Shown here one piece after another: positions 28,804 to 51,058 of a stretch of 64,000 nt of DNA. The DNA comes from a bacterium (GTDB lineage Bacteria > Elusimicrobiota > Elusimicrobia > UBA1565 > UBA9628). Every line of letters begins with the position of its first letter. Positions within the stretch are counted from its first letter, which is position 1. Made by a program: the position numbers and the translations under genes. Location: NCBI GenBank assembly GCA_021799485.1, contig JAJZAK010000009.1:2850-66849 (forward strand), in the 5' to 3' direction. The notes beneath the pieces were generated by a model. That model was not told where the DNA came from and made no database searches. It was given only the letters and a program-made list of their open reading frames with translations.

Positions 28804-29804
28804 GGCATGGAGAAGGTTTGAGACGGTTTCTTGGGAAGGTTAAAGGTCAAGCTCACGAAGCTTTCCGTACCCAGAACCCCCATCGGCACGAAGGCGTAAT
28901 CGATCGAGAAGCCCTTGAACTTGATCCCGAGGCCGGCGCTGACGGCCGACAGAACCCCCAAGCTCGATAGGGTCTCGGTGTTAAATCCCGCCCGGACCGC
29001 CCCCGAGATGTCGCGGTCGAAGTCGGCGGTGTATTCGGTCCCCACGGCGGCGAAGGCGGGGCTGTAGTTCGGCAAGGTCACGTCGCAAGAGACGAGAAGA
29101 GGCCTCCAGGGCCGCGCCGCGCCGCCCATCTTCGCTTGGAAGGGAAGGGGCTCTTGGGTTTGGACGAATTTGGGGCCGGAGCCGATGTTCTGCGCGGACA
29201 CGGCGAGGGTATAGGGGAACAGCCCGCGTTCGAAGCGCGCCATGGCCCCGATGTCGGCGCCGTAGCCGGTGGCCGTCATAAGATAATCCGAGTGGATGTA
29301 GCGGAGGGTGGCGCCTAGGTCGACGGACATGTCTCCGGAGGACATGTCGTAGATGTCCGATCCCCAGCCGAACTCGGCCACGAGGTTGTTGGGATTAAAG
29401 GTGCCGAGAGAGTTGTTGTTGACGTCCGTCTCCTGGACCGAGCCCAGGTTTTGATAGCGGAGGCCTCCGGCCAGGACGTCGAAGTCGCTGACCCGTTGGG
29501 CGTAGTTGGCCGCCTGGTAGTTGATGCCCGCGACCTGGCTTCCGTACATGAAGCTGCCGGAGGCGCGGGGAATGAGGGCCAATCCAGCGGGATTCCAAAA
29601 AATCGAATTCGAGTCGTCGGTGACCGCCGTCATGGCGCCGCCCATGGCGATGCCTCGCGCTCCGACGCCCATGAGAAGAAAATCGTCGGATGTCGTTCCG
29701 ACGCTTTGGGCATTGAAAAGGCCCGCTACGGCCGGGGGGCCCGGAGCGAGGAGGGCCAGAAGACAAAGCGAGAGAATCCGCGGGGATAAGGAGCCTAAAG
29801 TCAT
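28800..29804 (-). CDS. PorV/PorP(SprF)-like FadL-type outer-membrane beta-barrel
   Basis: Signal peptide, then ...LLMGVGARGIAMGGAMTAVTDDSNSIFWNPAGLA motif characteristic of PorV/PorP/FadL-like barrels; C-terminal ...LTFNL aromatic/hydrophobic barrel end; ATGA overlap with upstream giant CTD gene. Confidence 0.55.
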   Translation of the reverse strand: MTLGSLSPRILSLCLLALLAPGPPAVAGLFNAQSVGTTSDDFLLMGVGARGIAMGGAMTAVTDDSNSIFWNPAGLALIPRASGSFMYGSQVAGINYQAANYAQRVSDFDVLAGGLRYQNLGSVQETDVNNNSLGTFNPNNLVAEFGWGSDIYDMSSGDMSVDLGATLRYIHSDYLMTATGYGADIGAMARFERGLFPYTLAVSAQNIGSGPKFVQTQEPLPFQAKMGGAARPWRPLLVSCDVTLPNYSPAFAAVGTEYTADFDRDISGAVRAGFNTETLSSLGVLSAVSAGLGIKFKGFSIDYAFVPMGVLGTESFVSLTFNLPKKPSQTFSMP

Positions 29805-32800
29805 CGCAGGATCACGATCTTGTGGATTTGCGAGCCTCCGTTCGACTGGATGACGGCGAGGTAAAGCCCGCTCGCGACCGGTTGCCCGGAGGCGTTGCTG
29901 CCGTTCCAAAGGTAGGTGCCCGTCGCGCCTACGCTAACATCCAAGACCCGGAGGCCGCGCGTGGTGAAGATCCTCAGCCGCGACCCGGAGGGCAGGTTGG
30001 CGAAGGTCATGTCGAGGGAGCGCGAGGGATAAAAGGGGTTCGGGTAGATCTCGACCGGGCCCAGAGTCGAGGCGGGCTGGATTTGCGTCACTTCGTAGGT
30101 CGCGAGCTGGTCGATGGTGGCCGTGACGAGGTTCGTGGCGGAGTCGAAGGTGGTCGGAACGGGGTGGCATTGCTTCCCGACGGGGTCGTAGCGCATGACG
30201 GAGTATTCGCTGGTGGGTTGAGGAAGCTCCGCCGAGGTGTAGGACATGACGAGTTGGAGGGATCCCGTCGGTTGGATGTTCGCTCCGGGGTAGACGGTGC
30301 TGAGAGCGACGGCGATGCCGGTGCCCAGGCTGCCGCAGGGCAGGGGGGAGGGGGCCGCCGCGAGGACCTCGATCGAGGAATAAGAGGTGGCGAATGATCC
30401 CGCGGGTATCGTCAGTTGGACGAGTTCGCCGTCTCCAAGAGACCCCGTGACGTTGTTTATCGTCGTCGGATAGACGATGCCGCAAATCTCGCCCGGGGGC
30501 GCGGAGCAGGAGGCGGAGGCGGTCGCGGTGATCACGGCGGGGGATGCCGCCGACGGCCCGTCGCCCGAGAGATTGTACGCCGCGACGATGATGGCATTGG
30601 GGCTTCCGGGAACGGCGTTGGTCTGAACGTAGCTGGGCGCGCCGCTCACCGCGACCGTCGCGATCCAGAGGCCCGTCGAGGAGTCGTAAACGTCGTAGCC
30701 GTCGACGGGGTAGCCGGGCAGCTGCGACACGGGGTTCCATGTCCACTGGATCGCCGTCGCCGTCAAGGTCGAGCCCATGATATTGGTCGGGGCGGCCGCC
30801 GGCTTGAGAGGCCCTGCCTGCACGATGTAGCCGTTCGAGAACTGGGCGTTGGCTCCCACGCGCAATTGATACCAGCCCAAGGGCAGTGTGTCGGAGAGAG
30901 GAGGAGGATAGGCGGCGCCCATGACCGCCGTCAGGGAGCTGTTGATCAAATTCCAGGGCGTAATGGCGGCCGGTCCGTAATACAATTCGGTCGATAGGTC
31001 GACCGTGAAGCCTCCTCCTCCTTGCGGCCCCCCGCCGGATCCGGCCAGGGCCTGCAGGCTTAGTCGCGGGCCGTAAAAAAACGAGTTCGATCCGGCGCCG
31101 CCGCCGCTGGAGCCTTCGGTCATTCCTTGGAAATTCGATCCGGTCAGCGTGAATGAGTTTCCCGGGTAGAACGACGAGGCGTTCGAGCCCGTGACGGCGG
31201 GCTGGCGAATGCTTGGCGGGGCGCCGGCGGTGAGGGCGTCAGGGAAGGATGTGAAGTAACCGGACTCGATGGAATTGAGGTAGTTCGAGCCGCCGCCCGA
31301 TCCTCCGATGACGTAAAGGTAGCCGTTGGGAGCGAGGACGGTCGTATGTCCGATCCGTCCTTGTTTGATTTCGAAAGTGTAGGTGCTCCATGATTGAGTG
31401 TAGGGATCGAAGAATTCGTCGGCGTCGGGATTGGCGATAATGCCGGACCCCTGGGCTCCGCCGATGACCCAGACTTCGCCGTCGGGAAGGGCGACGGCGT
31501 TATGTCCAAAGCGCGGCGTCTGGAGCGGGCCTGTGGCGCTCCACTGCGATCCGGACGGCATATTAGGATTGAAAATGTAGGAGGAGCTCGTTTCGCCGCC
31601 GCCGTTGTCGCCTCCGGTGACGAGGACGCGTCCATCGGGCAGAAGGGTGGCCTGATGGTTGTAGAGCGCGGCCGGCATGGGGTCGACGCTCACCCATCCT
31701 GATCCGGGGGTGTAAATGGCGGCGTTTTTGACCGGGCCCCCGGCATTGATGCCTCCGCAGGCGAGAACGGCGCCGTCGCGCAGCAGCGTCATCGCGAGAT
31801 TGGACGCGCTATAGGGAAGGCTGGCGGTGGCGGACCATAGACCGGTCGTGGAAGCGTAAACCTCGGCCGAGCTGAGGTAGGAGCCGCCCAATTGGTTGCC
31901 TCCGGCGACCAAGACGGTTCCATCCGGCAAAAGAAGCATGCCGTGGTTTTGGCGCGCGTTTTGCATGCTGCCCGTCATGGCCCAGGCGCCCAGGGCCGAA
32001 AAATAGATTTCCGCCGTCGCCGTGGTCTGGGTCGATCCGCCGACGTCCGTCTGGCCGCCGGCCACCAGCACATTGCCGTTGACCAGGAGCGTCGCCGTAT
32101 GAAGGGCGCGCGGGTAGCTCATCGAGCCCGTCGCGGTGACGGAGTTGCCGTTCGGGTTGAGAATTTCAGCCGAATTCAGGAACCCGGACACATTTTCGCC
32201 GCCTGCCGTCAGAATGGTTCCGCTCGAAAGCAAGGTGCTCGTATGGTTCGCCCGGGCCGTCTGGAGGGAAGCGCTCCCCGTCGCGAAGCTGCGATAATAA
32301 AGGAGAGTCCGCAGGTTCTGATTGGCGGGACTGCAGGGAGCGATCGTGGGAACGGCGGCGGAGCAGGTCAGGCCTCCTGTCGCCAAGATCGAGTCGTTGG
32401 GGCGAAGCACGGCGGCGTGGCCGTAGGATTCGATGCTGCCGTAGTTTGGATGGTTGGCGAACGTCCAGGTGTTGGCCGCGGGGGAATATTGCTCCTCGTC
32501 TCCGAAGATCATGGAGTTGATGACGATCGTCGCGATGGCGACCGAGTAGTTCTTTCCGGTTAAATCAATATAGGCGGACACGGCCCCGCCCACATTATTC
32601 GGGTCTGTCCCGACCGGGGTCGTGGAGACATAGACGGTTCCACAACCGCTGGCGCCGCAAGCCATGGTGTCGCTCATCGCGCTGAGGGAGATGTTGTTGA
32701 GGGTGATCTGGCCGCAGTTCCCCGAGCTGCCGCACGTGACCCTCACGCCCGCGAGGCAGACGGCGGCGCCTTGAAGGTTGGAGCAGCTCGTCCCTTGCCC

Positions 32801-34078
32801 GCCGTCCGAGCCCGGAGGATTCGTTCCCTGGAAACCGAAAACGACGGTCCCGCTCGCGAAGGAGACGTTCGCGGAGGAGAAAAGAATATAGCCGTCCTTG
32901 ATCATGCCCGTCGCCTGCACGCCCAAGGACACGCTTAATTGGGAGAAGTTCAGGTTGTAGCTTTGTATTGGCGCCGAGGCGTTCGGGGCCAACGAGAAGT
33001 TGCTGCATGCGCTGGGCATGGCGCACGGGGAGTTGAAGGTCACGGTGGAGCCGGTCTGCAGGGAGCCGGAGGCCGCGACATAGGTGGTCGTGATCGTGCC
33101 GAGCCCGCCAAAAAGGTAGACGCCGCCGTCCGCCTGCAGCGTGGCCGTGTGAAGGGCCTTGTACTCCTCCATGGGTTGGCCCAGCGTGACGCTGCCGGAG
33201 GTCGGGTCATAGATTTCCGTTCCAGCGAGATAGCCGCCGGGGCCGGGGCCGGTGGTCGAGTCGCCCGGATTGGCGATGCCGCCGGCGATGAGGACCTGGT
33301 TGTCGCCCATCAAGGTCGCCGTGTGATAGGCCCGATGGACGGAGAGGGGGGTGGAGGCGCTGAAGGCGTTGGCCGACGGATCGTAAAGTTCGGTCGAGAG
33401 AAGAAATCCGTCGGTCGAGTTGTAGCCGCCCGCAATGAAGACGCGGCCGTCGGAGAGAAGCGTCGCGGTGTGGCCCGTGCGTTGGGTGGTCATTGTGATC
33501 AGAGAAGTATTGAACGCCCCGGGCGCTCCACTAAAGGAGCAATTGGGATCGTTGGCCGGAAGGGGAAGCGAGGCCGAGGGGGTAAACATCTCGCAGCTTT
33601 GATGAAAGGTCGGCGTGTTGTCCTGCCCGCCGCAGACGAGGACGGAGCCATTAGACAGAAGGGTCGCCGTGTGGTCGTAGCGGGCTTTCGTCAGGGGGAT
33701 CGTCGTTCCATACATGCAGTGATAGACGGGATTGTAGACCTCGGCGGTATTGCTGACTCCCGTAGGCGAACAACTGTTGCCGCTGCAATAGACGCCGCCC
33801 ACCAGCAAGACGTCGCCGTTCGGCAGCAACGTGGCCGTATGCGAAGCCCGCGCGACGGACATGGTCGCCGAAAGTGTCGTGGCGCTTCCGTTGTTGGCGT
33901 TGATCAACACGATTTGATTGGAGAGTCCGCTCGTCGTTGAATAACCGCCCGTCAGGAGGATGTTGTCGTCCGGAAGAAGCGTCGCGGTTTGGTCGGCGAG
34001 GGTTTGGGCCGCCGCCGAAATCGCAAAAAATGCGGAGGAGAAGGCGGCGCAGGCAAGGACGGCCTTTGTCACGCGCAT
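29801..34078 (-). CDS. Giant secreted protein: ~13 Kelch-like blades (two beta-propellers) + Ig/FN3-like region + C-terminal T9SS/FlgD-Ig-like sorting domain
   Basis: Signal peptide; recurring HTATLLxxGxVLVxGG blades; C-terminus IYPNPFYPSRSLDMTF...LWNGSNASGQPVASGLYLAVIQSNGGSQIHKIVILR matches Por-secretion/FlgD-Ig CTD consensus. Confidence 0.8.
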   Translation of the reverse strand: MRVTKAVLACAAFSSAFFAISAAAQTLADQTATLLPDDNILLTGGYSTTSGLSNQIVLINANNGSATTLSATMSVARASHTATLLPNGDVLLVGGVYCSGNSCSPTGVSNTAEVYNPVYHCMYGTTIPLTKARYDHTATLLSNGSVLVCGGQDNTPTFHQSCEMFTPSASLPLPANDPNCSFSGAPGAFNTSLITMTTQRTGHTATLLSDGRVFIAGGYNSTDGFLLSTELYDPSANAFSASTPLSVHRAYHTATLMGDNQVLIAGGIANPGDSTTGPGPGGYLAGTEIYDPTSGSVTLGQPMEEYKALHTATLQADGGVYLFGGLGTITTTYVAASGSLQTGSTVTFNSPCAMPSACSNFSLAPNASAPIQSYNLNFSQLSVSLGVQATGMIKDGYILFSSANVSFASGTVVFGFQGTNPPGSDGGQGTSCSNLQGAAVCLAGVRVTCGSSGNCGQITLNNISLSAMSDTMACGASGCGTVYVSTTPVGTDPNNVGGAVSAYIDLTGKNYSVAIATIVINSMIFGDEEQYSPAANTWTFANHPNYGSIESYGHAAVLRPNDSILATGGLTCSAAVPTIAPCSPANQNLRTLLYYRSFATGSASLQTARANHTSTLLSSGTILTAGGENVSGFLNSAEILNPNGNSVTATGSMSYPRALHTATLLVNGNVLVAGGQTDVGGSTQTTATAEIYFSALGAWAMTGSMQNARQNHGMLLLPDGTVLVAGGNQLGGSYLSSAEVYASTTGLWSATASLPYSASNLAMTLLRDGAVLACGGINAGGPVKNAAIYTPGSGWVSVDPMPAALYNHQATLLPDGRVLVTGGDNGGGETSSSYIFNPNMPSGSQWSATGPLQTPRFGHNAVALPDGEVWVIGGAQGSGIIANPDADEFFDPYTQSWSTYTFEIKQGRIGHTTVLAPNGYLYVIGGSGGGSNYLNSIESGYFTSFPDALTAGAPPSIRQPAVTGSNASSFYPGNSFTLTGSNFQGMTEGSSGGGAGSNSFFYGPRLSLQALAGSGGGPQGGGGFTVDLSTELYYGPAAITPWNLINSSLTAVMGAAYPPPLSDTLPLGWYQLRVGANAQFSNGYIVQAGPLKPAAAPTNIMGSTLTATAIQWTWNPVSQLPGYPVDGYDVYDSSTGLWIATVAVSGAPSYVQTNAVPGSPNAIIVAAYNLSGDGPSAASPAVITATASASCSAPPGEICGIVYPTTINNVTGSLGDGELVQLTIPAGSFATSYSSIEVLAAAPSPLPCGSLGTGIAVALSTVYPGANIQPTGSLQLVMSYTSAELPQPTSEYSVMRYDPVGKQCHPVPTTFDSATNLVTATIDQLATYEVTQIQPASTLGPVEIYPNPFYPSRSLDMTFANLPSGSRLRIFTTRGLRVLDVSVGATGTYLWNGSNASGQPVASGLYLAVIQSNGGSQIHKIVILR

Positions 34079-44288: not shown

Positions 44289-45176
44289 TTAAAAGAAGTT
44301 GGCGAACGACGATTCGGCGGACGAGAAGAAATTTTCGATGAAACTAGCTTTTTTGCTGATGTCGCCGAAGAAACCGGTGAACGCGCTTTGCAGGGGATTC
44401 TGTTCGGGTCCCTCGAGAGGGGACGAAGCGCCCGCAACTTGGTTATTAACCGGGGGAAATTGAAAATAATGCGCGGACTCCCCCGTCGAGCAAACGCCCA
44501 TCAGCGTCTCGGGGACCGGCACGGCAAAACCGCCGATGATCCCGCCGACAAAGGCCCGGCACCATCGGAACGGTTGAGGGAAGGCTCCCGGGGTGTTGGG
44601 AGGCCCATTGAACGACGACGCTCCGCCGGCCCCCGCAACCGTCATGCCCGGCGTCATGATGGGTCCCGAGGCTAAAAACCCACGCGGCACCGGACAACGC
44701 CCCATCACAATGTTCGGCTGGATGGAACCGGATGGATTCACGAACCAAGGAGATGGCTGCGCCATGGGGTAGATTGGTCCGACAATATGCGGACACCAGT
44801 CTCCGATTCCGATCTGCGGACAAACCCAATGTCCAAGGGTTTCACCAGAATTCTCCAGGTCGGCCGACATGGCCGGGTCGGGCGTCGGCTGGCCGCCGCC
44901 CGGGCAAGCGCCCGGCGGTTGGGGAAACGGGATGCAGTGGAATTTTGCGTTAATCGAAGCGCCGCCAAAGAAATTCAGGAAGCTAGCCGGAGCCGGGCCG
45001 GGGACTGCGATTTGGCCGGAGGGGCATTGGAAGCCTGCGACGGCGCCCCCAGAAGGCGGAAACGCCCCCATGTCTCCATCTGCGGCCGCGAAGCCTGCCG
45101 AGCCGACGGCAAGCATCCAGGCGGCGATCCACGTCAATACCTCTTTCCCAAACTTTGAACTGGCCTTATTATTCAT
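44289..45176 (-). CDS. Secreted Cys-rich protein, novel family (paralog A)
   Basis: Signal peptide; conserved core HCIPFPQPPGACPGGGQ...HWVCPQIGIGDWCPHIVGPIYP shared with downstream paralog; strong SD GGGAGGGGAGGA 8 nt upstream. Confidence 0.6.
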   Translation of the reverse strand: MNNKASSKFGKEVLTWIAAWMLAVGSAGFAAADGDMGAFPPSGGAVAGFQCPSGQIAVPGPAPASFLNFFGGASINAKFHCIPFPQPPGACPGGGQPTPDPAMSADLENSGETLGHWVCPQIGIGDWCPHIVGPIYPMAQPSPWFVNPSGSIQPNIVMGRCPVPRGFLASGPIMTPGMTVAGAGGASSFNGPPNTPGAFPQPFRWCRAFVGGIIGGFAVPVPETLMGVCSTGESAHYFQFPPVNNQVAGASSPLEGPEQNPLQSAFTGFFGDISKKASFIENFFSSAESSFANFF

Positions 45177-45224
45177 CAATCTATCCTCCCCTCCCGGTTT
45201 GCCAGAGAAGCCATGTTCTGTTGA

Positions 45225-46835
45225 TTAGAGTCCGCCAAAAAACCCCGCGAGATTGTTCCACGTAGCGTTTGTCGCGCCAAGACTCCCGCCAATAAACGGG
45301 GAGGCGGGAAATGTCCACGTTCCGTAAGTGCATTGTGAGCCCTGAGCACCATTGTGAGCGACCAGCATGCCTGGGAACTCTTTGGGAGCGGTCCACAGGT
45401 CGACGGATTCACCATTGAGACAAGACATGGCGGGATTGTCCGTCTCGAAGTCGAGGATTTGGCCGACATGGCGCGCATCCGAAAGACCTTCGATGGTGAT
45501 GTTTTTGACCCGAGTCATAAAGACCGACTGCCAAGTCCCCTGGTTGTCCCAGAGGCCGACGGCTCCGTCAGACTCCGCCATGCGACCGGAAACCTGCGAA
45601 GGAAGCGCAAAAAAATGCGTTTGTTCCCCGGCTATCCCGGACTGGCAGACTTCTATCTGCCTCAATATGTAGGTCCCTAGGACCCCCCCTGGGTGGTCAG
45701 TGCAATACTTGTACGGTTGAGGGAAAAGAGACTGCATTATGCCGATGGCGCCTCCAGCGGCTGCGGGTGCAGCCGCTCCCCCGAGCGCCGTTCCTCCCCC
45801 CGTGCAAGCGAATCCCGGAGGCAAGTTGCGGCAGTTTTGGCCACCAGGGCCTATCCCCTGAGATTGTTGTGGGAGACAATCTCCCATCACGAGTTGAGGT
45901 GCTTTCGTCGCTTCGCTTATGGCTCCAGAAATGCTGTTGATTATGCCGTTAGTTGGAACCGCGGCGCCGGCCGCAGGAATCGGGTACACGGGACCCACGA
46001 TGTGCGGGCACCACCCGCCGACTCCAACGGAAGGACAAACCCAATGCTCAACGACAAAGCCGCTCTGGCTGAGCGCGGCATTCATGTTCGGGTCAGGGGA
46101 AGCCTGGCCGCCGCCAGGGCAAGCCATCGGCGGCTGGGGAAGCGGGATGCAGTGGCGGGCGATGGAGACGTTCGCGCCGGCCTGATTGGCCGATTGGCTG
46201 ACCGCTCCGGCGGCGGGACCGTGGCCGTTCGGCGCCGCCGCGAATAAGGTTGGCATAGTAACCGGAATGGAAATCTCACCGGCAGGGCATGCAGAGCTAT
46301 TGCTCGTGGAACTGCCGGCCCCCGACTCCGCTATGGTCCCCGTGGGAGCGCTGGTCCCCGAACCCAACACGGAGCCTGAACCACTCCCGCCGTCGCTCGC
46401 TGGGCCGCCCGGATTGCGGATGCAGCGATTTCCCGCCGAGATCGTATCCGGAGGGCAATGAGGGCCACCACTTGTATAGCCGCCACTGTCGCCTCCAACC
46501 GGGGGGGAGCCCGTTGCGGGTGTGGAAGAATTCCCGCCGCCTCTAACAGGAGGAGATTCCTTCCCCGGGAAGCCGCCGTTTGTGGAGCCACTAGAGGAGC
46601 CGTCACCGCCTTGGACTTGGCCAACCGGCGTCTTGAGCAACGAGCGAAGCTGTTGGAACGTGGCCTCCGCCTGGGATGGTGTCATATAATAAACTTCGCT
46701 CGAAATATTGACCGGAGAATCCCGGCCTTGCCCCTCAGCGGCGGAAGCGACCACCACCATGTTGGCCGCAAATAAAAAAGCGGCTCCGGGCGCCGCGAAA
46801 TCTTTGAACAGCCTACACAAAATGGCGTCTTTCAT
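45225..46835 (-). CDS. Secreted Cys-rich protein, novel family (paralog B, with Gly/Ser-rich N-terminal extension)
   Basis: Signal peptide; core HCIPLPQPPMACPGGGQ...HWVCPSVGVGGWCPHIVGPVYP and second block FPQPYKYC...VCQSG...HFF aligned to paralog A; SD GAGGAGG. Confidence 0.6.
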   Translation of the reverse strand: MKDAILCRLFKDFAAPGAAFLFAANMVVVASAAEGQGRDSPVNISSEVYYMTPSQAEATFQQLRSLLKTPVGQVQGGDGSSSGSTNGGFPGKESPPVRGGGNSSTPATGSPPVGGDSGGYTSGGPHCPPDTISAGNRCIRNPGGPASDGGSGSGSVLGSGTSAPTGTIAESGAGSSTSNSSACPAGEISIPVTMPTLFAAAPNGHGPAAGAVSQSANQAGANVSIARHCIPLPQPPMACPGGGQASPDPNMNAALSQSGFVVEHWVCPSVGVGGWCPHIVGPVYPIPAAGAAVPTNGIINSISGAISEATKAPQLVMGDCLPQQSQGIGPGGQNCRNLPPGFACTGGGTALGGAAAPAAAGGAIGIMQSLFPQPYKYCTDHPGGVLGTYILRQIEVCQSGIAGEQTHFFALPSQVSGRMAESDGAVGLWDNQGTWQSVFMTRVKNITIEGLSDARHVGQILDFETDNPAMSCLNGESVDLWTAPKEFPGMLVAHNGAQGSQCTYGTWTFPASPFIGGSLGATNATWNNLAGFFGGL

Positions 46836-46904: not shown

Positions 46905-47056
46905 GTTAAATATCTGTAATGTCAGGAAAAAAGTTCCGACAGATTTTGGTGCGCAGATGGACTTGCATCAACGGCCCGGGTCCTTGCGCGGCGTTGCGGG
47001 GGACTCCCGGAGGCGGCCGGTTGTGGGAGGACGCGGCGCCATGCTACGATGACGCC

Positions 47057-47740
47057 ATGGCCATCAACGATATATCGGCAAACGTCGTGATCGCCGCGGC
47101 CGCCTTGCTATGGGGCGGGCTCTCGCCGGCGCAAGCCGCCTCCTCCGGCAAGGCCGGAAAGGCGGCTCTCTTGCTTGACCCATCGAAGTCCGTCCTGCAG
47201 GCGCCCAAGGAGTTCAAGGTGGCCTTTAAGACGACGAACGGCACGTTCACGGTGGATTTCCGCCGCGACTGGGCGCCGCTGGGAGTCGACCGCGTCTACA
47301 ACCTGGTGAAAGACGGCTTCTTTGCCGGTGACGCGTTCTTCCGCGTGGTCCCCGGCTTCGTTGTCCAGTTTGGACTCAACGGGTCGCCCCAGGTCAACGC
47401 CGCCTGGCGGCAGGCGCGCATCCAGGACGACCCACCGACCGGCCATTCCAACAAGCGCGGCACGATCGTCTTCGCGACCGCGGGGCCCGGCACCCGCACG
47501 ACCCAGCTTTTCATTAATTTGGCCGATAACCCGATGCTCGACAGCATGGGTTTCGTCCCGCTGGGAGAAGTCGTCGGCAACGGCATGGACACGGTGCGAA
47601 GCCTCTTTAGCGGCTACGGCGACGGCCCTCCCCAGGGCGTGGGTCCCAACCAGGGACAGATCGTGGCGCAGGGCAACGCCTACTTGAAGAAGGATTTCCC
47701 CAAACTCGACTACATCAAGACCGCGCGAATCGTCAAGTAA
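47057..47740 (+). CDS. Peptidyl-prolyl cis-trans isomerase, cyclophilin type (periplasmic)
   Basis: Signal peptide then GFFAGDAFFRVVPGFVVQFG, FATAGPGTRTTQLFINL cyclophilin motifs. Confidence 0.85.
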   Translation: MAINDISANVVIAAAALLWGGLSPAQAASSGKAGKAALLLDPSKSVLQAPKEFKVAFKTTNGTFTVDFRRDWAPLGVDRVYNLVKDGFFAGDAFFRVVPGFVVQFGLNGSPQVNAAWRQARIQDDPPTGHSNKRGTIVFATAGPGTRTTQLFINLADNPMLDSMGFVPLGEVVGNGMDTVRSLFSGYGDGPPQGVGPNQGQIVAQGNAYLKKDFPKLDYIKTARIVK

Positions 47741-47741
47741 C

Positions 47742-48548
47742 GTGTCAAGCCGTTCGGCGCTGGTATGCGCAGCGGCGATTTCGCCGATGATATGGGGATT
47801 ATGTCCCTCTTCTGGGGCCGTGGATGCTCACCCCGAGGCGCGCGGGTTGCCTCCCGACGCGACGGCGGTCGCGTGGGATCGCGATTCCCTGGAATACGCG
47901 GCCGTTTGCTCCGAGATCTACGGGTCGGGGCTTCGCTATGTTCAAGAGTTCGCGAAAAACCATCCCGGGCTCAAGAACTGGTGCGTGGTGCTTGATATCG
48001 ATGATACCGTCCTCACGACGGCGCCTTTCCGCGTCGAGGAGAGGGGGCGCGCCTTCAACGGGTGCCGTTGGCTCAAGTGGAACCAAAGCCACTTCCTCGA
48101 CGCTGTCCCCGGAGCCAAGCGATTCCTGGACGGCGTCCGGAGGCTGCCGGGCGCCCATGTCGTCTTCATCACCGACCGAAGGCCCGTGATGCTGGAGCGG
48201 ACAAAGGTGAATCTGCGGCGAGCCGGCCTTTGGGGAAAGGGGGACCTTCTGATTGGCCAGGACAACCCGGATGACACGAAGCAGAAAAGACGGCGTGATT
48301 GCGTCGAGCGCGCGATAGACCCGCGTTGCAAGGCGGACGGTCCGATGATGATCGCGGCGCTCTTCGGCGACCAGGTGCTTGATTTTAAATCCCTATACGG
48401 CGACGCGGTGCGCTCGGCCAGGGCCCGCATCGTCCGCGACGGCGCCTGGGATCCCCGTTATTTCGTTCTTCCCAATCCCATGTACGGCGCCTGGAAGGTC
48501 GGCTACTCTCCCGAAAAATGGCACGCCAAGGACTGGAACTGCCGCTAG
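47742..48548 (+). CDS. HAD-superfamily class B acid phosphatase-like protein
   Basis: DxDxT motif VVLDIDDTVL, later GD...D; N-terminal signal-like segment. Confidence 0.65.
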   Translation: MSSRSALVCAAAISPMIWGLCPSSGAVDAHPEARGLPPDATAVAWDRDSLEYAAVCSEIYGSGLRYVQEFAKNHPGLKNWCVVLDIDDTVLTTAPFRVEERGRAFNGCRWLKWNQSHFLDAVPGAKRFLDGVRRLPGAHVVFITDRRPVMLERTKVNLRRAGLWGKGDLLIGQDNPDDTKQKRRRDCVERAIDPRCKADGPMMIAALFGDQVLDFKSLYGDAVRSARARIVRDGAWDPRYFVLPNPMYGAWKVGYSPEKWHAKDWNCR

Positions 48549-48569: not shown

Positions 48570-49334
48570 ATGAAACGAGTCGCCATCCTCAACCATAAGG
48601 GAGGAAGCGGCAAGACCACGACAACGGTCAACCTCGGCGCCGCCTTGGCGGAAGCCGGGAAACGCGTTCTCGTCCTCGACTTCGACCCGGCCGCGGGAGC
48701 CTCCATGTGGCTGGGGGCCGTTTCGGATGACGGCCGACCGGGACTCGCGCAGGCCGTCGGAGGATCGGCGGATCTCTCGGAGCTCATCCGAGAAACCGCC
48801 GTCCCGGGCCTTGAGATCATACCATCCACGCTCGCCTTGTCGAAGGCGGAAAAATCGCTCGCGTCGGAGATCGGCGGGGAAACCGTCCTCAAAAGAAAAT
48901 CGTCGGGGCTGCCCTCGGGACGCTGGGATTATCTTCTGGTCGACTGTCCGCCGACCTTGGGGCTCCTGACCTTGAACGCCTTGAGCGCGGCCTCCCATGT
49001 CCTTATTCCCGTCGAGGCCCATGTCATGGCGCTTTCAGGGGTGGTGTCCTTGATGGAGACCATCTCGATTGTCCGAGAGAGGCTTAACCCGGGTCTTTCC
49101 GTTTGCGGGGTTCTCGCCTGCCGTGTTGACGGCCGGACGCTTCATGCGAGGGAGGTGCTCCGGCTGCTCCAGGATAAGTTCGGCTCGCTTTTCTACTCCA
49201 CCCGCATCCGCGAAAACGTCAAGCTCGCCGAGAGCCCCTCCTTCGCCAAGCCGGTCACTCTTTACGCGCCGTCAAGCCCCGGCGCCGAGGACTACCGGGC
49301 CCTGGCGCGGGAGTTCGCGGAAAAAATTTCGTGA
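48570..49334 (+). CDS. ParA/MinD-family P-loop ATPase (orphan)
   Basis: Deviant Walker A NHKGGSGKTTTTVNLG, LVLDFDP, DYLLVDCPP. Confidence 0.85.
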   Translation: MKRVAILNHKGGSGKTTTTVNLGAALAEAGKRVLVLDFDPAAGASMWLGAVSDDGRPGLAQAVGGSADLSELIRETAVPGLEIIPSTLALSKAEKSLASEIGGETVLKRKSSGLPSGRWDYLLVDCPPTLGLLTLNALSAASHVLIPVEAHVMALSGVVSLMETISIVRERLNPGLSVCGVLACRVDGRTLHAREVLRLLQDKFGSLFYSTRIRENVKLAESPSFAKPVTLYAPSSPGAEDYRALAREFAEKIS

Positions 49335-49549
49335 GCAAGCAGGGGCGCGGGAGAAAGTCGCGATTCAAGCCCAAGACGATCGGATTGAATCCGCTGGAGA
49401 GACTTCCGGACGCGGGCGCCGGAGCGAAGCCCAAGCCTCGTGGTCCCGAGACCGAGCTCCGCATTCAGGCCCGCGAGTTGCTGGCGCCGCCGCCTTCGGG
49501 GCTCGCGGCGGCCTTTCGGCGCTGGCTCGCGCGCATCTTCTCGGCTTAA
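49331..49549 (+). CDS. Small basic protein (72 aa) overlapping parA stop; possible ParA partner
   Basis: GTGA overlap with parA stop; K/R-rich N-terminus; no recognisable domain. Confidence 0.3.
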   Translation: MSKQGRGRKSRFKPKTIGLNPLERLPDAGAGAKPKPRGPETELRIQARELLAPPPSGLAAAFRRWLARIFSA

Positions 49550-49579
49550 AACACGCACCGAGCATGGCGGTGGGGGCGC

Positions 49580-50344
49580 CTAAACCGAGGCCATCGCCAC
49601 GGCGATTTCCGAGCGGAGCTCCGGGTACGCGGCCGGATTTTTAAGGAAGGCCCGCGCTTGGAGGGTGGACGCGCAGCCAAGAAGCTCTTTGGCGTCCGGG
49701 CCGTCGGCGGTCACGATCATGGGAACGCCGCGGGTTTTGCCTCCATCCCGAAGAAGCTGGGCAAGAATGAAGCCGTTGAAATCGGGAAGCCGCAGATTGA
49801 GGATGATCAGGGAGGGCCTGAATTCCGTGGCCATCCGCATTCCCTCGTCGCCGCCGCGTGCCACGCGGAGATCGCAGCATAGCTCCGTGGCGGCCCCGCG
49901 CGCCGCCTCCCGGAAAGCGGCGTCATCGTCGATGAGGAGAATGGTTCTTGGGAATCGCGACGTCGGTCCCGCCAGAAGGCATTTGAGATGCCTTAGGAGC
50001 GCATGGGGGTCGTTCGTGATCTCGGATTTAGTCAGGAAGATCTCCGCGCCGGAGCGCCGCGCCGCCTCGGCATCATCGGGACTCTCCTTGATTCCCGATA
50101 TCATGACGACCGGAATGCCGTGGGTGGTGTCGTCGAGCTTGAGCGTCTTTAAGACATCGCGGGAGGAAAAGCCGCTTTTGAGGATGCAATCGAGGAGGAT
50201 GATATGAGGATGGAAGGTCTTGGTGAGCTTGACGCCGGTCGGACCATTTCCCGCCCTCGCGGTCTGGAAACCAAAGATGACCAGGCATCGGCACAGGTAG
50301 TCGGAGAAGTCCTCGTCGTCGTCGATGATCAATATCCGTCGCAT
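49580..50344 (-). CDS. Tandem receiver-domain protein (REC-REC; second receiver has Asn at phospho-acceptor position)
   Basis: REC1: IIDDDEDF...IILLDCIL...VVMISG; REC2: LLIDDDAAF...LIILNLRLPDFNG...MIVTAD. Confidence 0.8.
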   Translation of the reverse strand: MRRILIIDDDEDFSDYLCRCLVIFGFQTARAGNGPTGVKLTKTFHPHIILLDCILKSGFSSRDVLKTLKLDDTTHGIPVVMISGIKESPDDAEAARRSGAEIFLTKSEITNDPHALLRHLKCLLAGPTSRFPRTILLIDDDAAFREAARGAATELCCDLRVARGGDEGMRMATEFRPSLIILNLRLPDFNGFILAQLLRDGGKTRGVPMIVTADGPDAKELLGCASTLQARAFLKNPAAYPELRSEIAVAMASV

Positions 50345-50362
50345 GATGTTTTCATGGCGCGA

Positions 50363-50395
50363 TATTTGACAACAAAGACTAGAACATGGTAAATT
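50363..50395 (+). promoter_or_regulatory. Sigma70-like promoter (TTGACA-N17-TGgTAAATT) for HTH-REC gene
   Basis: ttgacaacaaagactagaacatggtaaatt in the AT-rich divergent intergenic region. Confidence 0.3.
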
Positions 50396-50461
50396 ACCAA
50401 AACAAAGTAATAGAAGTATACGGGCAAATCAATCAGAAGACGGTAAAAATTCGGTAACTCA

Positions 50462-51058
50462 GTGGCTTTCAAAACCTATACGACCCACGAGATCGCGAAG
50501 TTTTGCGACGTCTATCCTTCAAGCGTCCTTCATTGGATCAAAGAGGGAAAGCTTAAGGCGCACGTGACGCCCGGCGGGCATCGTCGCGTCGCCCGAGAGG
50601 ATCTGATCCGCTTTTTAAAGCAGTTCCAAATGCCCATTCCGGCGGAATTACAAGCCGGGAGGCGCCGTATCCTCGTCGTCGATGACGAACCCGAGATGGC
50701 GCGGATGCTGGAAAAGATCTTCCGCATGCATGCCGACCTTTTCGACATCGAGGTCTGCGGCTCCGGGATCGACGCCCTCATCAAGATCGGCCAGTCCCCT
50801 CCCGATCTCGTCGTCCTCGACGTCGTGATGCCCAAGATGGACGGCTTCCAGGTCTGCCGGATTTTGAAGACGCGTCCGGAAACGAGCTCGGTGCGGATCA
50901 TCGCTTTGACGGGCAAGAAGGTTCCGATCAACGAGCACAAGCTCGACGAGCATCACATCGACGCGTTTTTCCGCAAGCCTTTCGATGTCGAGCAGTTGCT
51001 GGTCAAGGCCGCGCAGTTGCTGGGAGTGACGTTGGCGGCGGCTCCGGATACGCCGTAA
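50462..51058 (+). CDS. Response regulator with N-terminal excisionase/MerR-type HTH and C-terminal receiver domain (GTG start)
   Basis: YTTHEIAKFCDVYPSSVLHWIKEGKLKAHVTPGGHRRVAREDLIRFL HTH_17-like; REC ILVVDDEPEM...LVVLDVVMPKMDG...IIALTGK. Confidence 0.75.
   Translation: MAFKTYTTHEIAKFCDVYPSSVLHWIKEGKLKAHVTPGGHRRVAREDLIRFLKQFQMPIPAELQAGRRRILVVDDEPEMARMLEKIFRMHADLFDIEVCGSGIDALIKIGQSPPDLVVLDVVMPKMDGFQVCRILKTRPETSSVRIIALTGKKVPINEHKLDEHHIDAFFRKPFDVEQLLVKAAQLLGVTLAAAPDTP

Follow-up and report, generated by a model that had tools for sequence, protein, structure and literature searches.

ParA/MinD ATPases serve bacteria as general-purpose machines for positioning, and published work shows that the partners of these ATPases act through a basic, disordered N-terminus. 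McdB, the partner of McdA in carboxysome positioning, binds its ATPase through ~20 N-terminal residues. The first 20 are both required and sufficient, hydrophobic residues contribute beside the lysines, and the cargo is bound by an aromatic motif at the C-terminus (bioRxiv 10.1101/2025.05.22.655647). In type Ib plasmid partition (ParF/ParG of TP228; ParA/ParB of pCXC100), a ParA without an N-terminal helix-turn-helix (HTH) is encoded next to a small partner with a basic, flexible N-terminus, a centromere-binding protein of the ribbon-helix-helix type, and in chromosomal ParABS (Soj/Spo0J-parS) the partner is ParB. MinE has both a segment that contacts its ATPase and a helix that targets the membrane, and Soj-type ParAs have regulatory roles such as the control of DnaA. 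For most orphan ParAs the cargo is not known, and ParA partners are hard to recognize because they have no common domains. Here, we describe a two-gene cassette in a 64-kb stretch of contig JAJZAK010000009.1 from an Elusimicrobia bacterium (the whole stretch is referred to as the window). In this cassette, an orphan parA gene is followed by a gene for a K/R-rich protein of 72 amino acids (aa), which we call the mini-partner. We judge, at a probability of roughly 60%, that the cassette encodes a ParA together with an adaptor pared down to a ParA-stimulating peptide and a membrane- or cargo-binding helix.

Compared with the described systems, the cassette resembles a ParA-adaptor pair and falls outside ParABS and type Ib partition, and its ATPase is not McdA-like. 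Like the type Ib systems, the cassette encodes a ParA of ~254 aa that has no N-terminal HTH, with a small partner with a basic N-terminus encoded next to it. On the Cardinium plasmid pCher (NC_018606), a ParA that is 47% identical to the window ParA is accompanied by a partner whose start, MAKRQTIGENPLDSL, carries the motif of the mini-partner. However, the mini-partner has neither a ribbon-helix-helix (RHH) nor another DNA-binding domain (no strand in AlphaFold2 (AF2) models; no C-terminal similarity by hhalign), and the locus lacks flanking centromere-like repeats and lies in a chromosomal housekeeping context. The resemblance to McdA/McdB lies in the pairing of a presumably nucleoid-bound ParA-type ATPase with a small, largely disordered basic partner, and, with regard to McdAB-like microcompartment pairs, in the occurrence of a ParA of the window's subfamily in a Pdu operon; the window ParA nevertheless scores ~170 bits against Soj/ParA and 72 bits against McdA, and the window has no microcompartment gene. 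A reading of this DNA made earlier from the letters alone, the sequence-only reading, had likened the locus to McdA/McdB and PpfA/TlpT. This likeness holds for the principle of an adaptor with a basic N-terminal peptide, but not for the family, as the ParA is Soj-like, and the nearest of its relatives that can be characterized include cassettes for plasmid partition. PpfA/TlpT and ParC/ParP, which position chemoreceptor arrays, share with the locus an orphan ParA-like ATPase, the use (presumed for the locus) of the N-terminus of a cargo-associated partner, and surrounding signaling genes. Unlike in those systems, there are no chemotaxis genes nearby, the partner is neither a receptor nor a CheW-like protein, and the signaling neighbors are not conserved. 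MinD/MinE likewise joins a deviant Walker A ATPase to a small activator with an ATPase-contact peptide and an amphipathic membrane helix, but here only the putative activator has an amphipathic helix, the ATPase lacks a membrane-targeting sequence and carries the DNA-binding Arg, the mini-partner is not homologous to MinE, and the topology would be inverted, with the ATPase on the nucleoid and the activator on the membrane. With respect to ParABS, the window ParA is 43% identical to Bacillus subtilis Soj and keeps the signature Lys and R189, and the N-terminus of the mini-partner resembles the ParA-binding peptide at the N-terminus of ParB; yet the partner, with 72 residues versus ~280, has no ParB domain, CTPase, or HTH, and the window has no parS. 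As expected of an adaptor pair, the partner gene is adjacent to that of the ATPase, and the basic N-terminal region, which by its sequence is the putative ATPase-binding segment, is modeled as unstructured.

The window ParA matches the Pfam families AAA_31 (3.5e-46; 157.8 bits against a cutoff of 27) and CbiA (1e-21), and it reaches no NCBIfam equivalog cutoff. It carries the deviant Walker A sequence K10GGSGK15T together with D39, D125, and R189, which places it in the ParA/MinD superfamily. K10, K15, D39, and D125, belonging to the deviant Walker A, Walker A', and Walker B motifs, are invariant across 139 ParA relatives, and these four residues and R189 are all invariant within the clade of ParAs that have mini-partners (R189 in 7 of 7 members). 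The best solved relatives are the ParA 8RAY and Thermus thermophilus Soj, 1WCV (171 bits to the ParA/Soj structures), as compared with ~55-60 bits for MinD. In an alignment with B. subtilis Soj, Soj G12, K16, D40, and R189 are kept as G11, K15, D39, and R189, and Soj R218 is matched by K218, so that a basic residue is kept at this position as well. Residue 189 of Soj, an Arg as published, is the nonspecific-DNA-binding Arg. The C-terminal 30 residues of the window ParA have a net charge of 0 and form neither an amphipathic tail nor a membrane-targeting helix. ATPases that use the nucleoid as their matrix have a basic DNA-binding surface that includes the equivalent of Soj R189, and they lack a C-terminal amphipathic membrane-targeting sequence (PMC11407121). 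The window ParA has both properties, and the nucleoid would therefore be expected to serve as its matrix. We infer that it is a Soj-type, nucleoid-binding Walker ATPase. An ATP-dependent sandwich dimer and a partner-stimulated ATPase activity are predicted for it as expected traits of the superfamily.

The mini-partner is encoded by a real, constrained gene that is translationally coupled to parA. Its GTG start overlaps the TGA stop of parA by 4 nt (GTGA; TTTCGTGAGC), and its product has 16 K/R and 5 D/E residues, for a net charge of +11, and matches no Pfam or NCBIfam model. Its GC content at the three codon positions (0.66/0.59/0.80) follows the same pattern as in the adjacent genes. Relative to the orthologue at locus L001, substitutions number 6, 3, and 18 at codon positions 1, 2, and 3, and the Nei-Gojobori dN/dS ratio is 0.16 against L001 and 0.31 against L002, as compared with 0.15 and 0.11 for ParA in the same pairs. 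Gene callers predict the open reading frame (ORF) in five independent public assemblies. Word-indexed and exhaustive HMMER searches over billions of proteins returned a family of 12 members of 64-77 aa (the window clade P0001/P0002, P0004, P0006 from locus L003, P0007 from locus L088, P0008-P0012, and the protein of L002). The 11 members, of 12, for which the locus was recovered all start between -4 and +6 nt from the stop of a ParA that is 61-83% identical to that of the window; P0001 and P0009, the latter on a contig of 521 nt, fall outside the locus recovery. The member from L003 is encoded at ~50% GC (~64% in the window) and is 27% identical, and it keeps the motifs. A scan of metagenome contigs with an alignment pattern of the small ORF gave 81 pattern matches, 0 of which were confirmed by tblastn; the productive contig scan used ParA as the query. 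The check called for by the sequence-only reading, namely conservation of the small ORF and its coupling to parA, supports that reading as regards the ParA-adaptor pair. When neighborhoods are compared between lineages, no gene beyond parA and the mini-partner is held in common, and the conserved unit is therefore the two-gene cassette. We consider it very probable that its products are an ATPase and its cognate partner.

An alignment of the 12 family sequences resolves four modules: a Lys/Arg-rich N-terminus, the motif TI[G/A/S]xNPL[D/E]xL, a second basic patch (KPKPRG in the window protein, KRKGRK in relatives) followed by a short helix with the pattern E.R..[A/I]RE.[L/I]L, and a C-terminal W[L/F]..[V/I/L][F/L/W] helix. 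Residues T16, I17, N20, P21, and L22 are invariant across the family, as is R48. AF2 models built with 3 and with 11 sequences agree with one another, with a mean pLDDT of 64 in each case. Residues 1-20 are modeled without regular structure (pLDDT ~55-62), the unstructured stretch extends over residues 1-38 save for a turn at 21-24, and two helices follow, at 40-51 and 58-71; no beta-strand is predicted. In the C-terminal helix, F62, W65, L66, I69, and F70 form a hydrophobic face and R63, R64, and R68 lie opposite. The 11-residue segment with the highest hydrophobic moment (muH) is the C-terminal end of the protein in 4 of 4 lineages tested (muH 0.70-0.89), and the membrane-targeting tails of MinD score lower in the same computation (0.48-0.57).

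The motif is not confined to the mini-partners. We assembled 167 loci encoding relatives of the window ParA from genome and metagenome collections, and the stop of ParA is present in 163 of them. In 72 of these 163 loci, the ORF directly after ParA contains T[ILV]x.[ND]P[LF], as compared with an expectation of 0.05 in the downstream intervals, and elsewhere in 2.47 million six-frame residues the pattern occurs twice. Because peptide patterns taken from the query served to retrieve the loci, the frequencies of the partner classes among them are not unbiased. Profile-profile alignment by hhalign of the mini-partners with the RHH-type partners aligns the N-terminal 18 columns alone (P 94%, E 1.3e-7), and the C-terminal parts are unrelated (P 0.1%). 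On these grounds we rejected the view of the mini-partner as a shortened RHH protein with helix-turn-helix remnants of ...ELIERVKNAVYWTPGLTL... The shared segment, the motif with its preceding basic run, corresponds to residues ~9-26 of the mini-partner. More distant relatives of the window ParA, at L062 and L069, are followed by true ParBs that start MAKKSGLGSNPLSW (...GLGSNPLSW), which bridges the motif to the ParA-binding peptide at the N-terminus of ParB. In a neighbor-joining tree of 139 distinct ParAs, a simple tree, the 7 ParAs with mini-partners are monophyletic, 45 of the 50 ParAs in their sister clade have other motif-bearing partners, and ParAs without such a partner, of which many are chlamydial, fall outside the motif-partner clade. 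The latter include the ParAs of Chlamydiota loci L006, L008, L010-L012, and L014 and others, among them some from other metagenome-assembled genomes (MAGs), which are 50-55% identical to the window ParA and lack a motif-bearing ORF downstream; if they have partners, these are encoded at other sites.

Behind the motif, the partners differ. In 31 loci, the motif is followed by an RHH-like domain (...LTVHLP..L..RVKNAVYWTPGLTL... or ...TVTVPSDLA...). A PDB profile search with these partners gave sub-threshold matches only (CopG RHH 9KKD and 3NO7, E ~0.35), so the RHH assignment is weakly supported; we take 3NO7 to be the RHH ParB of plasmid pCXC100, and this match is a lead rather than a test. The partner on pCher (L172:2231-3333) reads MAKRQTIGENPLDSL...RLKNAVYWTPGLTL... 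and lies beside a gene with a VapE domain. A similar partner follows an annotated partition ParA on Salinibacter ruber plasmid pSR16 (L173:2097-3204), beside a CHC2 zinc-finger gene with a DNA-replication Gene Ontology term. This RHH-like class, which has the motif NAVYWTPGLTL, is annotated on these plasmids only as 'hypothetical protein', and this candidate family of RHH-like centromere-binding proteins appears to be uncurated, since no Pfam or NCBIfam model covers it.

A predicted C-terminal transmembrane (TM) tail anchor stands behind the motif in 9 loci. These partners comprise 137-aa proteins of Nitrospira ending ...LKWALGLILAPLVLLAFLG and a 68-aa version at L106:797-1003. In Nitrospira and its relatives (L016, L018, L021-L024, L026, and L162), the partner ORFs lie ~40-50 nt after parA and end ...EEENLCLKWALGLILAPLVLLAFLG, which suggests that a Soj-type ParA is coupled there to a membrane-anchored partner. 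In L092, L094, and L096, the motif is followed by a coiled coil and a short W-containing amphipathic tail. The partner at L072:6112-6486 has a Lys/Ala/Pro-rich tail resembling histone H1 and no Pfam match. Partners of 161-185 aa from Burkholderiaceae MAGs (L052, L055, L131, L134, and L142) start MPSPKKTIKFNPLD and contain a Gly-rich hydrophobic hairpin (GFITGGPLGFLFSFLMGE), likewise with no Pfam match. For the longer partners at L007, L049, and L095, a phasin-like assignment was dropped for want of Pfam support.

At two loci the motif is fused to a bacterial microcompartment (BMC) shell domain (PF00936, 1.2e-23). These are L017:6001-7436, from a Thermodesulfobiota MAG (JBGOWQ010000002), and L019:6001-7424, from a Coprothermobacterota MAG (JAPLHW010000119), and their ParAs are 52-53% identical to the window ParA. 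In both, the gene overlapping the ParA stop encodes MTRKTIGENPLDAVIP, the BMC shell domain, and a Lys-rich tail. Both ParAs lie within complete Pdu microcompartment operons. That of L017 has genes for the large, medium, and small subunits of diol dehydratase, a reactivase, ParA, the motif-BMC fusion, a further BMC protein, PduL, and an adenosyltransferase of the PduO type. If the shell protein bears its own ParA-docking peptide, microcompartments could be positioned without a separate McdB-type adaptor. Given the plasmid cassettes and the Pdu operon, the subfamily would therefore position DNA in certain settings and protein organelles in others, by way of one docking peptide. These comparisons point to the motif as the partner signature of this ParA subfamily, with an interchangeable C-terminal module behind it, and it is likely that the motif docks on ParA and activates it.

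The mechanism that we propose for the window cassette is as follows. ParA-ATP dimers would coat the nucleoid, and residues ~9-26 of the mini-partner would dock on the ParA-ATP dimer and trigger ATP hydrolysis and release, a role equivalent to that of the N-termini of ParB, McdB, and other partners. The C-terminal helix, residues 58-71, would tie the mini-partner to the positioned structure. Its likeliest target may be the cytoplasmic membrane, at its inner face, or some membrane-associated structure, with a protein cargo as the alternative. This role of the helix is supported by its hydrophobic moment and by the sister partners that have the same N-terminus and end in membrane anchors or W-containing amphipathic tails, and we propose it tentatively, at somewhat less than even odds. 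This would give rise to a gradient of the Brownian-ratchet type, by which either that structure is positioned over the nucleoid or the nucleoid with respect to the envelope. With regard to origin, the cassette belongs to a ParA subfamily with a shared N-terminal partner motif and interchangeable C-terminal modules; in the Elusimicrobia-associated clade, this module is the helix alone.

The coordinates of the cassette and of the features around it are given in the table below. The window has ~64% GC, and its closest public relatives are Elusimicrobia MAGs. All four ORFs described in the sequence-only reading were found, including the overlap of the small K/R-rich ORF with the ParA stop. Genes for a peptidyl-prolyl isomerase (PPIase; 46919-47740) and a haloacid dehalogenase (HAD) acid phosphatase (47742-48548), parA, and the small ORF are arranged head to tail, separated by 1, 21, and -4 nt. 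The surroundings are those of a housekeeping chromosome, with a suf operon, a thiamine pyrophosphate (TPP) enzyme, methyltransferases, a solute-binding protein (SBP), and a hybrid kinase. The sequence-only reading held that the ParA has no parB, that the locus does not look like one for chromosome partitioning, and that parB and parS should be sought elsewhere. A tblastn search of the 64-kb window with the true ParB of L062 came up empty, and tblastn with the window ParA found no second ParA. A search for parS (TGTTNCACGTGAAACA) gave one 3-mismatch match, which is at chance level (mean 0.39; 30 of 100 shuffles with at least 1). With no ParB domain in the small ORF and no parS in the window, the locus is not a canonical ParABS. 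Searches of the window for a BMC-domain gene or other microcompartment cargo, for tRNAs, and for Rfam families gave no matches, and no family of centromere-like iterated repeats stands out between 48300 and 51200.

Features of the parA/mini-partner cassette and its immediate neighbors (window coordinates)
Feature	Position	Strand	Remarks
ParA ATPase gene	48570..49334	+	254 aa; Pfam AAA_31, CbiA
Mini-partner gene	49331..49549	+	72 aa; pI ~11.8; GTG start
Lys/Arg-rich tail, residues 1-15	49331..49375	+	7 K/R of 15; no regular structure in AF2 models
TIGLNPLERL motif, residues 16-25	49376..49405	+	Putative ParA-docking, ATPase-stimulating peptide
Short helix, residues 40-51 (ETELRIQARELL)	49448..49483	+	AF2 helix 39/40-51; R48 invariant
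C-terminal cationic amphipathic helix, residues 58-71 (LAAAFRRWLARIFS)	49502..49543	+	AF2 pLDDT ~88-89; putative membrane/cargo binder
REC-pseudoREC (double-receiver) gene	49580..50344	-	254 aa; two Pfam Response_reg stretches; neighbor, membership not supported
Divergent intergenic region	50345..50461	.	117 bp, 35% GC; promoter-like hexamers on both strands
HTH_17-REC regulator gene	50462..51058	+	Pfam HTH_17 2.7e-10, Response_reg 8e-22; neighbor, membership not supported

Two genes for proteins with receiver (REC) domains lie downstream of the cassette, and neither product reaches a specific NCBIfam family. Alignment of the double-receiver protein to CheY indicates that the first receiver keeps the phospho-Asp (LLD), and that the second has Asn at the D57 column (ILN) and a Lys one position off K109-P110. 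The suggestion that the second receiver has lost its phospho-acceptor is thus confirmed; in REC2 neither the phospho-acceptor Asp nor the Lys expected of a receiver is in its place, and the L001 orthologue has the Asn as well. In the divergently transcribed HTH-REC protein, the phospho-Asp is intact and the HTH_17 domain is excisionase/MerR-like; the AT-rich promoter region proposed for this divergent pair corresponds to the intergenic spacer listed in the table.

Other genes of the window were noted in passing. On the minus strand at 44289-46835, between sufC and the PPIase gene, are two tandem paralogous ORFs of 296 and 536 aa that are Gly/Pro/Cys-rich, have no Pfam match, and share the motif ...CPGGGQ..PDP.M.A.L..SG....HWVCP..G[IV]G.WCPHIVGP[IV]YP... 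Because the syntenic relatives L001 and L081 lack them, these ORFs look like an insertion of ~2.9 kb. A 1425-aa protein with many Kelch/galactose-oxidase-type beta-propeller repeats (Pfam Kelch_4, 3.5e-54) is encoded at 29801-34078, also on the minus strand.

Several observations weigh against the ParA/adaptor reading or bear on alternatives to it. The family is rare (~10 clusters in 5.8 billion proteins; 2 true matches in 1.84 billion representatives), which limits the power of comparison, and in the neighborhoods compared between lineages no conserved cargo gene stands beside the cassette. The amphipathic score of the window protein is modestly unusual, being equalled by 100 of 2000 shuffles, P0004 lacks the Trp, and the tail of P0012 is weaker; the hydrophobic moment is suggestive and not decisive. 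The amphipathic helix could equally serve dimerization or protein binding, and the net charge of +11 leaves nonspecific DNA binding by the mini-partner a live alternative. Such a DNA binder, acting with ParA to segregate or organize the nucleoid without ParB or parS, would fit that charge, the second basic patch, the histone-H1-like tail on the L072 partner of a related ParA, and a window without parB or parS. A partner spread over the whole nucleoid, however, would stimulate ParA everywhere and provide no positional cue; moreover, AF2 predicts no DNA-binding fold, conservation is concentrated in the amphipathic C-terminal helix and not in the basic linker, and the absence of parB covers the 64-kb window. 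We therefore regard this explanation as unlikely. The mini-partner might instead be a MinE-like pure regulator, an activator or reset factor without cargo, and the targets of ParA, such as DnaA or a distant ParB, would then lie elsewhere. Its very small size, the lack of a recognizable cargo domain, and the precedents of MinE, with its contact segment and membrane helix, and of regulatory Soj-type ParAs speak for this idea; but the motif of the sister clade sits on cargo-linking modules (RHH, BMC shell, TM anchor), and the conserved C-terminal helix implies a second binding surface, so that we consider a pure regulator quite improbable.

The sequence-only reading had proposed a single positioning/signaling module made up of ParA, the product of the small ORF, and the two receiver proteins (REC-pseudoREC and HTH-REC). 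In such a module, the receivers would be cargo of ParA or regulate it. The genes lie close together, their arrangement is kept in L001 and L081, a receiver-domain gene lies within ~2 kb in 3 of the 5 mini-partner lineages with enough flank, and a pseudo-receiver with Asn is a plausible protein-interaction module. Yet, among the mini-partner lineages with enough flank, these neighbors are shared solely with L001 and L081, whose ParAs are 83% identical to that of the window. The receiver genes of the other lineages are not orthologous: an unrelated hybrid kinase is encoded in L002, a C11 peptidase and a stand-alone CheY-like protein are encoded in L086, and no receiver gene lies near the cassette in L003 or L088. 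No orthology was found among the receiver-domain neighbors of different lineages, and because receiver domains are abundant their recurrence by chance is plausible. In addition, the REC-REC gene is convergent to the parA operon and is therefore not co-transcribed with it. Since the receiver link is not conserved beyond the closest relatives, the signaling-module reading is unsupported; we think there is little chance that it is right, and the adjacent receiver proteins are probably just neighbors. Least probable of all is that the cassette is a decaying remnant of a type Ib plasmid system in which the 72-aa ORF is a truncated, functionless ParB. Related cassettes with RHH partners do occur on plasmids, and the mini-partner is without the RHH region, but the ORF is under purifying selection, its length is steady at 64-77 aa, its C-terminal helix is kept across a monophyletic clade whose ParAs share just 61-83% identity with each other, the catalytic residues of ParA are intact, and the context is chromosomal (suf operon, TPP enzyme, methyltransferase). 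The dN/dS ratios and the conservation largely refute this possibility.

The ParA/adaptor cassette is best filed as a member of a kind already known, and what is new is a Soj-type ParA with an adaptor stripped to a docking peptide and one amphipathic helix. At 64-77 aa, the mini-partners are among the smallest candidate ParA partners yet; they would suit minimal study of a peptide-driven ParA cycle and would provide a ready-made synthetic positioning tag. If the C-terminal helix binds the membrane, the cassette would link nucleoid and envelope in a way of a kind not yet described. A bolder combination, in which the mini-partner sits on the membrane and activates a Soj-type ParA bound to the nucleoid, with MinDE topology inverted, and in which TIGxNPLD is a portable ParA tag, is rather unlikely as a whole. 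Were its first part true, the cassette would determine where the nucleoid lies relative to the envelope, or where a membrane structure lies over the nucleoid, and would do so in a lineage possibly without ParB. Were its second part true, TIGxNPLD would have been grafted onto DNA-binding domains, membrane anchors, and shell proteins, and its carriers would point to new ParA cargos. The short, strictly positioned motif (a basic run followed by TIGxNPLD) marks partners in many sampled phyla, whatever the cargo module, and a search for it downstream of parA could assign cargos to many orphan ParAs, including those of plasmids, of Nitrospira membrane-anchored proteins, and of Pdu microcompartments. 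This general finding may be more useful than the single cassette from which it came.

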